A DNA stretch of 64,000 bases from Aestuariivirga sp. GTDB taxonomy: Bacteria; Pseudomonadota; Alphaproteobacteria; Rhizobiales; Aestuariivirgaceae. The position numbers and the translations under genes are program-made. Of this stretch, positions 13,665-16,938 are shown one piece after another (within the stretch, counting starts at the first letter, position 1; every line of letters starts with the position of its first letter). The notes beneath the pieces are model-generated. The model did no database searches, was not told where the DNA came from, and saw only the letters and a list, made by a program, of their open reading frames with translations. The DNA lies in the NCBI GenBank assembly GCA_035525875.1, contig DATLDM010000103.1:38105-102104 (forward strand). The letters run 5' to 3'.

Positions 13665-14273
13665 ATGCCCCAGGATCTTTCATTTATTCATCGTTTTGAA
13701 CCCGGCACCTCAACCGCCGCACCCCTTCTCCTGCTCCATGGAACAGGCGGCGACGAAAATGACCTTCTGCCCTTGGGCAAAGCCCTGGCGCCGGATCGTG
13801 CGTTGCTATCGCCTCGCGGCAAGGTGCTCGAAAACGGCATGCCCCGCTTTTTCCGGCGCCTCGCCGAAGGCGTTTTCGACGAGCAGGACGTGATCAAGCG
13901 CGCCCATGAACTGGCCGATTTCATTGCCGAAGCCGGCAAGGCCTACAAGCTGGAAAAGCCTATTGCCGTTGGTTTTTCCAATGGGGCCAACATTGCCGCT
14001 GCCATTCTTCTGCTGCGGCCGGAGGCCCTGAGCGGAGCCATTCTGCTGCGTGCCATGGTGCCGCTTGCAAAGCCTCCGCAGGCCGAACTTGCGCAAACCC
14101 CGGTACTCATTGTCTCCGGCGCCAGTGATCCCATCATTCCCGCCAGCAATGCAAACCTGTTGGCCACCATGTTGAAGAACGCCCACGCCGATGTGCAGCA
14201 TGTAACGCTGCCAACCGGACATAACCTTACCCAGAATGACGCAACCCTCGCCACCAAATGGCTGAACCGATAG
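13665..14273 (+). CDS. Alpha/beta hydrolase (phospholipase/carboxylesterase, MhqD-like)
   Basis: [22 protein letters not shown] nucleophile elbow, GHNL. Confidence 0.88.
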
Positions 14274-14281
14274 GACACAAA

Positions 14282-15205
14282 ATGCAACTCAATGGCCTGC
14301 ACCACCTCACCGCCGTTACCGCCGATGCCCCCAGCAACCACAATTTCTATACGAAAACCCTGGGCCTCCGCATGGTGAAGAAAACCGTGAACCAGGATGA
14401 TACCTCGGCCTATCACCTGTTCTATGCCGACGGTCTGGGTTCGCCTGGCACCGATATTACCTTTTTCGATTGGCCCGTAGGCCGTGAACGCCGCGGCACC
14501 CATTCCATTGTTCGCACCGGCCTTCGCATCAAGGGCGAAGCCGCCTTCAAGTGGTGGGCCGATCATTTCAAGGCTCGCGGCGTTACAGCCGAAAAGGTTG
14601 TCGAAAGAGATGGCCGCCTTACCCTCGACTTCGAGGACTTCGAGGGCCAGCGCCTGAGCCTTGTCGATGATAATGGCACAGCCGAGAGCCACCCTTGGAA
14701 CGAAAGCTCCATTGCCGCTGAAAACCAGATTCGCGGCCTTGGTCCCATCACCCTCAGCGTGCCGGATTTGCGGCCAACCGAAGTGATCCTGACCACTGTC
14801 ATGAACATGACGAAGGCCCGTGAGTATGGAAACACCAGCGTGTTCAAGATGAACGGCTCCGGCCCCGTCTCCGAACTGCATGTCCGCGTTGACAAGGGCT
14901 TGCCGCCCGCCCAGCAGGGCGCCGGTTCGGTCCATCACGTGGCCTTCAACATTCCCTCGGTTGATTACGATGCTTGGGCTAGCCGCCTGAAGGAACTCCG
15001 CATTCCCAACAGCGGCCCGGTGGACCGCTTCTGGTTCAAAAGCCTCTATTTCCGCGAACCCAACGGCGTCCTCTTCGAACTCGCTACTGATGGTCCAGGC
15101 TTCGCCACCGACGAATCCCTGGAAAATCTCGGCAAGACCCTGTCCCTGCCGCCCTTCCTCGAAAACCGCCGGACCCAGATCGAAGCCGCATTGAAGCCGC
15201 TGTAG
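14282..15205 (+). CDS. Ring-cleaving dioxygenase / glyoxalase (MhqA/MhqO-like)
   Basis: [58 protein letters not shown]. Confidence 0.92.
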
Positions 15206-15210
15206 TTCCC

Positions 15211-15247
15211 TTCACCCCTCCCTCTTGAGGGAGGGGCTGGGGGTGGG
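15211..15247 (+). repeat. REP-like palindromic repeat, copy R1
   Basis: TTCACCCCTCCCTCTTGAGGGAGGGGCTGGGGGTGGG; perfect 10-bp stem CCCCTCCCTC/GAGGGAGGGG. Confidence 0.85.
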
Positions 15248-15718
15248 TGCAGGCCGCAACCGAGATCGGGAAGCTTCTTGCGCCTCCCTCCACAATTTAC
15301 GTCGCAGGTATTTTCGTGGCACCACGTGACTCCGTGCAAAACTCAGGTCCGGAGCCTCAACAATATCTTCCAAGCACCCTTCCAGCGCCGCAAGGATGGA
15401 GTCGCACACAGCTTCGCGTGCCTGCAGCACCGTGACCGAGGGCACACGTAGAATGGAATAACCCTCATTCAGCATGTGTGCATCGCGACGCATGTCATAT
15501 CCGCTCTCCACATGCTGGCTGCCATTGACTTCGACGAGAAGCATGCGCTCCCGGCAAGCAAAGTCCGCAAAATATGGACCAACTGGAAACTGCCGCGTGA
15601 ACTTGTAGCCACCGAGTTGGCGCGCTTTCAATACGTTCCATAGGCATTGCTCAGCCGGATTGGCAGTTTGCCGCATTGCCCGGGAGCGAAGTGTCGTCGG
15701 ATTAGTGTTGGCGCGCAT
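15212..15718 (-). CDS. DUF559 (Vsr-like) endonuclease domain protein
   Basis: MRQTANPAEQCLWNVLKARQLGGYKFTRQFPVGPYFADFAC...VEVNGSQH...RDAHM...GYSILR. Confidence 0.88.
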   Translation of the reverse strand: MRANTNPTTLRSRAMRQTANPAEQCLWNVLKARQLGGYKFTRQFPVGPYFADFACRERMLLVEVNGSQHVESGYDMRRDAHMLNEGYSILRVPSVTVLQAREAVCDSILAALEGCLEDIVEAPDLSFARSHVVPRKYLRRKLWREAQEASRSRLRPAPTPSPSLKREG

Positions 15719-15790
15719 GCTGTCCTCCCTGTTTCAACAAGGACGGGTATAAGGGTGGAATCCGTCTATGGTTTTGGGGACAATTTCAGC

Positions 15791-15824
15791 CCCACCCCTG
15801 CCCCTCCCCAAGGGGAGGGGTGAA
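15791..15824 (-). repeat. REP-like palindromic repeat, copy R2 (inverted)
   Basis: Reverse complement TTCACCCCTCCCCTTGGGGAGGGGCAGGGGTGGG; 9-bp stem. Confidence 0.85.
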
Positions 15825-15871
15825 AACGTAGAACACCCTTACCCAAGGGAAGGGATTACAGATCTTATTAC

Positions 15872-15905
15872 TTCACCCCTCCCTTGAGGGAGGGGCGGGG
15901 GTGGG
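15872..15905 (+). repeat. REP-like palindromic repeat, copy R3
   Basis: TTCACCCCTCCCTTGAGGGAGGGGCGGGGGTGGG; 9-bp stem; forms an inverted pair with R2. Confidence 0.85.
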
Positions 15906-15912
15906 CGAGGGC

Positions 15913-16938
15913 CTAAGGCAGATTATCCCGCATGAAGATGTCGATGCGGATGCGTTCCTGCGATTCAATCAGCGGCATCTTGTCGGCGTTGGCCATGAGC
16001 ACACGCACCGCGCTGCGCACCTCATGGCCCGCATCCTGATTGATAATCGCGTCGATCGAGCCGCGGATCAGCGCCCGGCGCGACAGGTCTGTAACCTCAT
16101 GGGCAATGAACACGATGTCCTTGGCGCGGCCCGCCGCCTCAAGGCCAGAAACAATGCCGCGCGTGCCGCCACCAACATTGTAGATGCCGATGAGATCGGG
16201 ATGCTCGGTCAAAAGTTGCCGCGTCATCTCCTCAATGCGGGCCCAGTCATCGCGCGATTCCCGCACCGGCAAAACGGCGAGATGGGAGTATTCATGCGCC
16301 ATCACCTGCTCGAAGCCAAACTGCCGCTCGATATGATCGCGCAGCGCCAGCGAACCCGCAAACACGCCAACCGTTCCCGTCATGCCGCGGAGAAATCGTC
16401 CCATGAGATTGGCCGCGGTACGCCCAGCAGAAGAGTTGTCGATACCGGCATAATGCTGGCGCTTCGACCCCGGCACATCGGACACCAGCGTCACTACCGT
16501 AATCCCGCGCGACACCAGCGCGTTGATGGCTTCGCGCACCGCCGGATGATCCAGCGCCACGACTGCAACCCCGTCCATAGCCTTGTCGATGGAATCAAGC
16601 GTTTGGGCCAGCAGTTCGCCGTCAAACACATCAACGCGCTTGACGATGATCGAAACCCGCTCGGCCTCCATGCGCTCCGTGGCAAGCCGCACCTCGTCGG
16701 CAATACGCATGAAAAACTCGCCGGTGCTCACCGGCAAGACAAAACAGAAGCGGTATTCCCGTGACCGCGCCAGCCGCGCCGCAATGCGGTCGGGCTGGTA
16801 ATTCAACTCGCGGATGGCGGCTTCGACCTTCGCGATGGTAGGGGCACGCACCCCCTGCCTGCGATTGAGCACCCGGTCGATGGTTGCAACACTCACCCCC
16901 GCAAGCCGCGCCACATCCTGAATCGTAAATTTCGCCAT
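15913..16938 (-). CDS. LacI family transcriptional regulator
   Basis: TIQDVARLAGVSVATIDRVLN HTH followed by a periplasmic-binding-protein-like sensor domain. Confidence 0.93.
   Translation of the reverse strand: MAKFTIQDVARLAGVSVATIDRVLNRRQGVRAPTIAKVEAAIRELNYQPDRIAARLARSREYRFCFVLPVSTGEFFMRIADEVRLATERMEAERVSIIVKRVDVFDGELLAQTLDSIDKAMDGVAVVALDHPAVREAINALVSRGITVVTLVSDVPGSKRQHYAGIDNSSAGRTAANLMGRFLRGMTGTVGVFAGSLALRDHIERQFGFEQVMAHEYSHLAVLPVRESRDDWARIEEMTRQLLTEHPDLIGIYNVGGGTRGIVSGLEAAGRAKDIVFIAHEVTDLSRRALIRGSIDAIINQDAGHEVRSAVRVLMANADKMPLIESQERIRIDIFMRDNLP

Follow-up and report, generated by a model that had tools for sequence, protein, structure and literature searches.

The subject of this study is a small gene of the DUF559 family and the repeats that flank it in a stretch of 64,000 nucleotides (hereafter, the window) from an Aestuariivirga sp. 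contig, DATLDM010000103.1. The gene lies between two convergent genes, one for a glyoxalase-fold protein and one for a LacI-family regulator, and its open reading frame (ORF) is bracketed by three copies of a repeat of 35-39 nt, referred to as R1, R2, and R3, all inside 700 bp (Table 1). Together, the gene and its cognate triplex-motif repeats form a conserved, selected, and occasionally mobile unit. An initial annotation of this DNA had described the repeats as hairpins in alternating orientation around the gene, and this arrangement is confirmed: the pattern CACCCCTCCC-N(0-8)-GGGAGGGG has three matches in the window, all of them here, vs none in each of 100 shuffles. A degenerate hairpin in the spacer between R3 and R2 is likewise present, and probably is a decayed repeat copy. 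The repeats delimit the cassette as described, with R1 starting 5 nt past the glyoxalase stop codon and R3 ending 6 nt before the LacI stop codon. R1 overlaps the gene's 3' end, and the ORF does read through it, i.e., its 12 final codons (...PTPSPSLKREG*) are the reverse complement of R1. No further repeat copy or other C-tract/G-tract hairpin was found in the window.

Table 1. Positions of the cassette elements and neighbouring genes in the window, and of related elements at other loci (locus given in the first column)
Feature	Position	Strand	Details
Glyoxalase-fold protein gene	14258-15205	+	stop codon TAG at 15203-15205
R1, triplex-motif repeat	15211-15249	+	10/10 triads; right-hand end of cassette; blocks TTCA, CCCCTCCCTC, TT, GAGGGAGGGG, CTG, GGGGTGGGTG
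R1, pyrimidine block (after TTCA)	15215-15224		
R1, loop	15225-15226		
R1, purine block	15227-15236		
R1, linker	15237-15239		
R1, mirror third block	15240-15249		
DUF559 ORF	15212-15718	-	507 nt, 168 amino acids; PF04480, E 2.4e-27
Leader between R2 and ATG	15719-15789	-	71 nt; ribosome-binding site GGGAGGA
R2, triplex-motif repeat	15790-15824	-	9/9 triads; left-hand end of cassette, inverted relative to R1; blocks (gene strand) TTCA, CCCCTCCCC, TT, GGGGAGGGG, CA, GGGGTGGGG
Degenerate hairpin CCCTTACCCAAGGGAAGGG	15836-15854		within R3-R2 spacer
R3, triplex-motif repeat	15872-15906	+	8/9 triads; direct orientation with R1; blocks TTCA, CCCCTCCCT, TG, AGGGAGGGG, CG, GGGGTGGGC
LacI-family regulator gene	15913-16938	-	stop codon at 15913-15915; convergent with glyoxalase gene
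Gene-less element, L146	3080-3230		
Gene-less element, L147	3835-4010		
Gene-less element, L148	1170-1330		
Gene-less element, L149	1360-1515		
YK209 DUF559 paralogue, L214	9830-10430		
YK209 DUF559 paralogue, L220	1440-1910		
YK209 DUF559 paralogue, L221	1420-1880		

Each repeat consists of a pyrimidine block (CCCCTCCC plus C or T), a loop, the complementary purine block (GGGGAGGGG, or A or G plus AGGGAGGGG), a linker of 2-3 nt, and a third block (GGGGTGGGG), the mirror image of the purine block, its T standing in register with the purine-block A. The ..GGGGTGGG tail of the earlier description is this third, mirror block and not a loose extension. In R2, the third block points towards the DUF559 gene. 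The stems measure 10, 9, and 9 bp in R1, R2, and R3, respectively, so that their lengths differ while the pairing is kept, as had been noticed, and the first loops are 2 nt at full stem length. R1-R3 fall within the limits set for ITxF (stem 6-15 nt, loops 1-6 nt; PMC4666352) and follow the three-block rule of BoxC/PIT/TM elements, in which G is placed on G, and T or A on A. From its sequence, the three-block pattern with the T-on-A register reads as the signature of an intrastrand purine-motif triplex, and across families the pyrimidine, purine, and third blocks co-vary three ways. The repeat is therefore a G/C-rich triplex motif of the known BoxC/PIT/TMECO class (PMC4666352) rather than a private repetitive extragenic palindromic (REP) element, and the view that these were the gene's own REPs had to be given up. 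R3 and R2 form an inverted doublet like that of REPINs, with 34-nt arms that are 88% complementary and a 47-nt spacer, and the doublet folds into a long hairpin (dG -42.7 kcal/mol, z -7.5, Watson-Crick folding only). The repeat ends read TTCA and TGAA, the GTAG/CGTC tag is absent from the ends of R1-R3, and the terminal inverted repeats of the cassette are 11 bp long. A consensus scan of the repeats and the leader found no sigma-70 promoter and no T-run terminator; an Rfam scan of positions 15000-16100 gave sub-threshold miRNA-like matches to the long hairpin only and no known RNA family, and a plasmid megablast with the locus gave no match. Mesorhizobium-type hairpins were at one point taken to be without a third block, which was wrong, as it sits behind a mini-hairpin linker of 12-22 nt.

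Knowledge of repeats of the BoxC/PIT/triplex-motif class dates back to the 1990s; hundreds of bacterial genomes contain them, and to our knowledge no origin, function, or mobilising enzyme has been assigned to them. In E. coli they were named BoxC first, then PIT, and then TMECO triplex motifs (PMC4666352). Holder et al. 2015 reported 23 copies in E. coli K-12, presence in >260 genomes, triplex formation in vitro, a strictly intergenic location, and strong variation between strains in the regions around the copies, and they named no associated enzyme ('never found ... transposases or integrases'; PMC4666352). The same G-rich strand is reported to switch between G-quadruplex and hairpin (PMC5100583). 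In the searchable literature, subscription-only sources excluded, no paper was found that connects BoxC/PIT/TM repeats with DUF559, Vsr-like proteins, or ycjD.

The DUF559 family of uncharacterised nucleases is very large and has members in model organisms. In the cassette ORF, the Pfam scan found the DUF559 domain (Table 1) and a weak match to REase_MTES_1575, no Y1 (HUH) transposase, and listed no match to PF03852 (Vsr). In the protein, residues 9-113 form the domain, residues 114-155 a conserved basic C-terminal extension, and residues 156-168 a tail encoded by R1. The nearest solved relative by sequence is 3hrl (NGO0050, E 8.6e-16), and no sequence similarity to the homing endonuclease I-Bth0305I was detectable. 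The AlphaFold model (predicted local distance difference test, pLDDT, 78.8) matches 3hrl with a template modelling (TM) score of 0.85, then the catalytic domain of I-Bth0305I (3r3p; TM 0.76-0.77, E 6e-4), a match of the kind expected of a homing endonuclease, and then, weakly, E. coli Vsr (1vsr; TM 0.53, E 0.07). By this model, the DUF559 protein is predicted to have a Vsr-like PD-(D/E)XK endonuclease fold. The sole NCBIfam match was the YcjD model, below its cut-off, and no defence-system model of PADLOC matched. No C5-cytosine methyltransferase gene adjoins the cassette, whose neighbours are the glyoxalase-fold and LacI genes only, the rest of the window not having been scanned for methyltransferases.

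The pairing of DUF559 genes with triplex motifs extends well beyond this locus. A homologue-alignment genome scan yielded 31 loci, from Aestuariivirga-like metagenome-assembled genomes, Phyllobacteriaceae, Sphingomonas, and one Saprospiraceae, and all 31 have a pyrimidine-first hairpin 25-190 nt upstream of DUF559, often with another at or past the 3' end. A detector that requires the third block (false-positive rate 3.7% on random flanks) found a triplex motif no more than 300 nt from the gene at 33 of 34 loci, with 1.94 motifs per kb near the gene vs 0.025 per kb in 568 kb of flanks, i.e., a 78-fold enrichment. Since many of these 34 loci share ancestry, an independent sample was drawn by tblastn of plasmid and chromid records, covering 10 genera from 4 phyla (Sinorhizobium, Azospirillum, Shinella, Qipengyuania, Sphingomonas, Methylobacterium, Neisseria, Deinococcus, Synechocystis, and Pseudanabaena). 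Nine of these ten loci score by the detector, with 19-49-fold enrichment over flanks; the tenth, in Pseudanabaena, carries on both sides a homopolymer variant (CCCCCC AGAATT GGGGGG CTA GGGGGG) that was seen by eye. Taken together, both sets show the pairing at 42/44 loci scored, and DUF559 genes in five phyla are flanked by triplex motifs; counted over every DUF559 locus examined in these phyla, the pairing was seen at 45 of 47. The association of gene and repeat across genomes that the initial annotation proposed to look for is thus very strong across phyla, and it includes the cognate pairs within single genomes described below.

Inverted flanking repeats are also found at a second site (L001) and in most other lineages. 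In other lineages, solo doublets in the flanks share stem sequence with the copies beside the DUF559 gene of the same locus, and solo inverted doublets occur at L121, L131, L134, L135, L146-L148, L208, and L209. A fixed orientation of the gene-proximal repeat was considered and rejected, as both orientations occur, and congruence of the repeat family with DUF559 protein similarity across taxa was not evident. In Neisseria gonorrhoeae (L215 790-3050 and 10480-11190), NGO0050 lies between tandem arrays of ~280-nt repeats, each of which holds two triplex motifs (CTCTCTCCC..GGGAGAGAG TTA GAGAGAGGG). In viral contigs, a loose hairpin pattern gave at least 109 matches, mostly chance hairpins, 14 of which have the full three-block motif; the loose pattern is therefore unfit for a genome scan, and solo motifs do exist. 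No DUF559 relatives were found in the viral contigs. Two of these contigs (L060 6520-6720 and L065 7090-7470) hold tandem arrays with a period of 175 nt and a full triplex motif (CACCCCTCCCCTTCAGGGGAGGGGACGGGGGTGGGGG) per unit, on contigs without DUF559.

Within single genomes, gene and repeat family go together. Sphingomonas parapaucimobilis YK209 has three DUF559 paralogues, each with a different triplex-motif family on both sides, and these are wedged into the conserved clusters yqeY/dnaG, pntAA/pntAB, and sufB/sufC (Table 1). Similarly, L135 has two paralogues and two repeat families; the second DUF559 gene (L135 1690-2110) lies 8 kb from the first on the opposite strand, with the family CCCTCCCC and a mini-hairpin linker. 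On a plasmid of Deinococcus sp. NW-56 (L210 19930-20400), a DUF559 gene for 112 amino acids is placed antisense in the middle of the hpa (4-hydroxyphenylacetate) cluster, with a triplex motif 18 nt upstream and a degenerate motif downstream. In Synechocystis sp. B12 (plasmid CP101712.1, L211 19648-20700), a repeat-DUF559-repeat unit with outward-facing third blocks interrupts a DUF1156/N6_N4 DNA methylase gene, where it replaces a variable linker of ~35 residues; the homologues are continuous in Planktothrix, Geminocystis, Nostoc, and Calothrix. From these cases it follows that the repeats travel with the gene, and that the DUF559 gene is not simply placed where the generic repeats of a genome accumulate.

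The history of the window locus could be followed through a metagenome scan with the LacI protein, which gave 63 orthologous loci, those with 94-99% identical LacI being regarded as close relatives. The junction between LacI and glyoxalase genes carries the DUF559 cassette at L003, L113-L116, L144, and L145, and is empty, with two overlapping stop codons, at L152 and, among less close relatives, at L161 and L162; in its ancestral form, the junction lacks the block from R3 to R1. A third state consists of gene-less palindromic elements of ~130 nt, of three kinds (L146; L147/L148; L149; Table 1). Those of L146 and L147/L148, in which the third block was checked, are solo doublets of triplex motifs that belong to other sequence families and have a mini-hairpin linker ahead of the third block. 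Relatives with a repeat and no gene at this site, as the initial annotation had suggested looking for, do therefore exist, but their repeats are of other families than R1-R3. In a neighbour-joining tree built from the LacI gene (a single gene, without support values), the three states are interspersed, and elements have landed at this junction more than once. Homing endonuclease genes are expected to be present in some close relatives and absent from others at a given locus, with precise boundaries, and such a polymorphism is found here.

A second site is provided by L001, where a protein (P0010) that is 88% identical is encoded between convergent Asp/Arg hydroxylase and BKACE genes. The homology between the window and L001 runs from the outer edge of R2 to the outer edge of R1 (TCACCCCTCCC...GGGAGGGGTGA), and drops to 42% identity, the random level, just outside R2. 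The block from R3 to R1 is an insertion, as the close relatives show, and its R2-gene-R1 unit recurs at another locus; in the window, the insertion is old and vertically inherited. R3 itself may be what is left of a cassette copy that once lay next to this one. At L113, which is on the same contig as L002, the R3 equivalent is preceded by a partial duplicate of the DUF559 3' end (L113 9790-9880), a sign that a tandem or neighbouring copy may once have been present. In run X4, one soil-metagenome contig lacks 83 nt at window positions 15833-15917 and represents a variant without R3, like L003 and L144. No transposase domain is present in the cassette, so it differs from insertion sequences and miniature inverted-repeat transposable elements, which are recognised by a transposase and target-site duplication. 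The sequencing runs (soil metagenome contigs, with no RNA among them) showed no excision or circle joints.

Selection was compared over seven cassette copies. The ratio of nonsynonymous to synonymous substitution (dN/dS) is 0.13 in the DUF559 domain and 0.28 in the C-terminal extension, and the protein is under purifying selection. R2 has a mean pairwise identity of 94% (7 loci), equal to that of codon positions 1 and 2, vs 80% for the leader and third positions, and variation in the repeats lies in loops and linkers. In R1, a 2-nt loop deletion alters the protein tail from SLKREG to SLKGGVE; the tail is thus a by-product of constraint on the repeat at the DNA level. Decay is also seen. Pseudogene copies occur at the LacI/glyoxalase site in L116 (2789-3295), L144 (3494-3997), and L145 (1211-1714), with two in-frame stops, changes at E63 and H69, and intact flanking repeats. 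The window copy itself has Asn at residue 65 (VEVNGSQH, codon 15524-15526), where 112/115 homologues have Asp (VE[VIL]DG..H). This single G-to-A change (D65N) also occurs in two other homologues, P0027 and P0037. Asp65 is probably metal-binding, and D65N may have weakened the window copy catalytically.

A further view of the pairing is offered by E. coli K-12, where ycjD, the only DUF559 gene checked there and presumably its single one, has TMECO no. 9 ~167 nt downstream of its stop codon. The 3' end of ycjD contains a decayed motif, and a duplicate of this end of the same kind as that before R3 in L113 is present; in K-12 (L207 11195-11420), this partial duplicate lies between ycjD and TMECO no. 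9. The strains of Holder Tables S1/S7 belong to what we take to be phylogroups A, B1, B2, C, D, E, and F, and the triplex-motif counts in these tables are 19-30 in A/B1/C, 11-15 in D/E, 6-7 in F, and 1-2 in B2. Table S2 of the same study lists ycjD as a neighbour, without comment (PMC4666352). In phylogroups A, B1, and C, the sapF-fabI interval contains ycjD; elsewhere, its place is taken by the eef operon (PMC12817139). In a separate sample of 59 evenly spaced E. coli chromosomes, in which matching places served as a proxy for motif copies, all 37 ycjD-positive chromosomes have 16-30 such places, and 12 of the 22 ycjD-negative ones have seven or fewer. This trend fits a dependence on ycjD and slow decay after its loss.

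The locus is read here as a compact inserted cassette in which a DUF559 endonuclease gene sits between inverted triplex motifs and in which nuclease action on the repeats would spread repeat-bounded DNA; the chance that this holds in full is put at about one in two. The nuclease would recognise the folded repeat (hairpin, triplex, or G-quadruplex) and nick beside it, and repair or copying at the nicked site would then spread repeat-bounded segments. In this scheme, the unit with the gene would be autonomous, and the solo repeat doublets non-autonomous. By analogy, this would be a functional counterpart of REPINs and their REP-associated tyrosine transposases (RAYTs), with a different nuclease fold and DNA structure. 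A REP-like system run by a Vsr-like nuclease, as the initial annotation had proposed, is accordingly still the best reading: gene and repeats are one unit, which is inserted, recurs at a second site, and has REPIN-like R3/R2 arms, and it is the part played by the nuclease on the repeats that we infer.

Several observations weigh against this reading. Activity in the window lineage is doubtful because of N65 in the window copy and the pseudogenes at L116, L144, and L145, and no target-site duplication was found at the window or the L001 junction. In E. coli, 10 of the 22 ycjD-negative chromosomes, e.g., O157:H7, have 10-23 matching places, so that ycjD is not needed for motif persistence, and the correlation as such is confounded by phylogeny. 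Repeat orientation relative to the gene varies between lineages. No DUF559 gene lies near the 14 viral triplex-motif loci. Caulobacter VsrA, also a DUF559 protein, induces the SOS response when the cytosine methylation of its partner is absent, i.e., it behaves as a methylation-linked repair-type nuclease (PMC12907096). Lastly, no solo copies of the R1-R3 family were seen in the window and ~100 kb of flanks, at five loci in close relatives; this lack is uninformative because E. coli has only 23 motifs in 4.6 Mb (1 per 200 kb), a density at which this amount of DNA would not be expected to contain another, and the absence of extra copies in 64 kb was accordingly dropped as an argument against a dispersed family. 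R1-like sequence (window 15208-15251) has a summed contig depth of 169 (run X1) and 448 (run X3) in the soil metagenomes, vs ~21 and 5 for the neighbouring genes; the contigs have unrelated flanks and point to many further copies in those communities, in this or other genomes; they cannot be assigned to the genome of the window.

Three other accounts each cover part of the data. The DUF559 gene could be a free-standing homing endonuclease that cuts the gene-less allele near the insertion point, the cassette being copied in by recombinational repair, with the triplex motifs as accessories (insulators, homology arms, or a split recognition site) that the enzyme does not disperse. The polymorphism and clean boundaries at the LacI/glyoxalase junction would be expected on this account, as would insertions between tightly packed genes (sufB/sufC, pntAA/pntAB), antisense in the hpa cluster, and inside a methylase gene, and an E. 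coli site occupied by either ycjD or the eef operon. After NGO0050, the fold comes closest to the catalytic domain of I-Bth0305I, yet the two sequences have no detectable similarity, and known free-standing homing genes are without conserved terminal repeats. Nor does the account explain why these genomes also carry solo doublets of the families concerned at other places, or why E. coli has 23 copies vs one gene; it is considered unlikely. Less likely again is a solitary repair nuclease of the VsrA type, often horizontally transferred, for which the triplex motifs would be recombination-prone landing DNA and the pairing a by-product of instability. VsrA is functionally tied to a cytosine methyltransferase and the SOS response, E. 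coli triplex-motif loci are hypervariable, and purifying selection on the protein would suit a host gene. On this account, however, the repeats should not arrive with the gene at repeat-free sites, as they do at the junction that is empty in L152 and in the methylase coding sequence; nor does it predict the same repeat family on both flanks with different families per paralogue in one genome, or pairing at nearly all loci scored (42/44), and no methyltransferase gene adjoins the cassette.

The repeats might instead be cis elements for DUF559 expression that move with the gene, namely, an upstream structure (25-120 nt) gating transcription or translation, together with a stabiliser or terminator at the 3' end. 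R2 shows the conservation of coding sequence and keeps a constant position 83 nt upstream within this clade, nearly all DUF559 genes examined have a repeat upstream, and RNA could adopt the hairpin part. RNA does not, however, form purine-motif triplexes (PMC4666352), yet the third block co-varies; PIT elements have no promoter or terminator activity in E. coli (summarised in PMC4666352), no T-run follows the stems, and orientation and distance differ between lineages. Solo copies far from any DUF559 gene would stay unexplained, and this account is considered the least probable. None of the three covers two-sided cognate flanking, co-arrival at repeat-free sites, and solo copies together.

On a wider and more tentative reading, DUF559 proteins, including YcjD and NGO0050, would create, move, or maintain BoxC/PIT/triplex-motif repeats across bacteria, as a second, independently evolved partnership of the REPIN/RAYT type. 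In this case, a Vsr-like PD-(D/E)XK nuclease would read triplex-, hairpin-, or G-quadruplex-forming DNA structure, and a repeat-gene-repeat cassette would still insert between and within genes. The DUF559 family may thus be the enzyme behind the BoxC/triplex-motif repeats. The cross-phylum cognate pairing gives both the repeats and the family a testable function; if true, it would establish a second class of nuclease-repeat symbiosis beside RAYT/REPIN and a natural protein that recognises triplex or G-quadruplex DNA. The pairing also accounts for the short DUF559 ORFs that break up conserved operons and mislead annotation, and ORFs that read into repeats acquire tails such as PTPSPSLKREG.

Among known systems, the repeats are closest to BoxC/PIT/TMECO (Bachellier et al.; Hoyne & Maher 2000, 2002; Holder et al. 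2015), with which they share the order of pyrimidine block, loop, purine block, linker of 2-3 nt, and mirror G/T block: E. coli TMECO reads CCCTCTCCC..GGGAGAGGG TTA GGGTGAGGG, and the window repeat CCCCTCCCC TT GGGGAGGGG CA GGGGTGGGG. Apart from the overlap of R1 with the ORF, both appear to be intergenic; both often form inverted doublets at strain-variable loci and have a G-rich strand with a G-quadruplex motif (PMC5100583). They differ in the block itself (CCCCTCCC in the window vs CCCTCTCCC in E. coli TMECO), and, unlike the published elements, the window copies bound a gene, the 3' end of which R1 overlaps. As for the protein, YcjD, NGO0050, and VsrA belong to the same Pfam family (PF04480), and the ycjD and NGO0050 loci also have triplex motifs. 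VsrA is proposed to act in mismatch repair, as a nuclease with a link to a cytosine methyltransferase, and none of the three has a reported connection with repeats; the window protein differs from them by a C-terminal extension of 55 residues. I-Bth0305I (3r3p), the closest characterised fold after NGO0050, resembles the cassette as a small selfish-like nuclease gene with presence/absence polymorphism, but it resides within a group I intron, carries additional DNA-binding domains, and is without flanking repeats. The resemblance to REPIN-RAYT systems (PMC3116915, PMC3337134) lies in a single nuclease gene flanked by inverted short structured repeats, in inverted doublets, in paralogues of one genome that pair with different repeat families, and in mostly vertical inheritance with occasional decay. 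Here, however, a Vsr-like PD-(D/E)XK fold takes the place of the IS200-like HUH/Y1 transposase, a three-block motif capable of forming a triplex or G-quadruplex that of the simple REP hairpin with a GTAG or CGTC tag (PMC3733652), and copy numbers are in the tens rather than hundreds. RAYTs are regarded as immobile, whereas the gene-plus-repeat unit described here appears to move.

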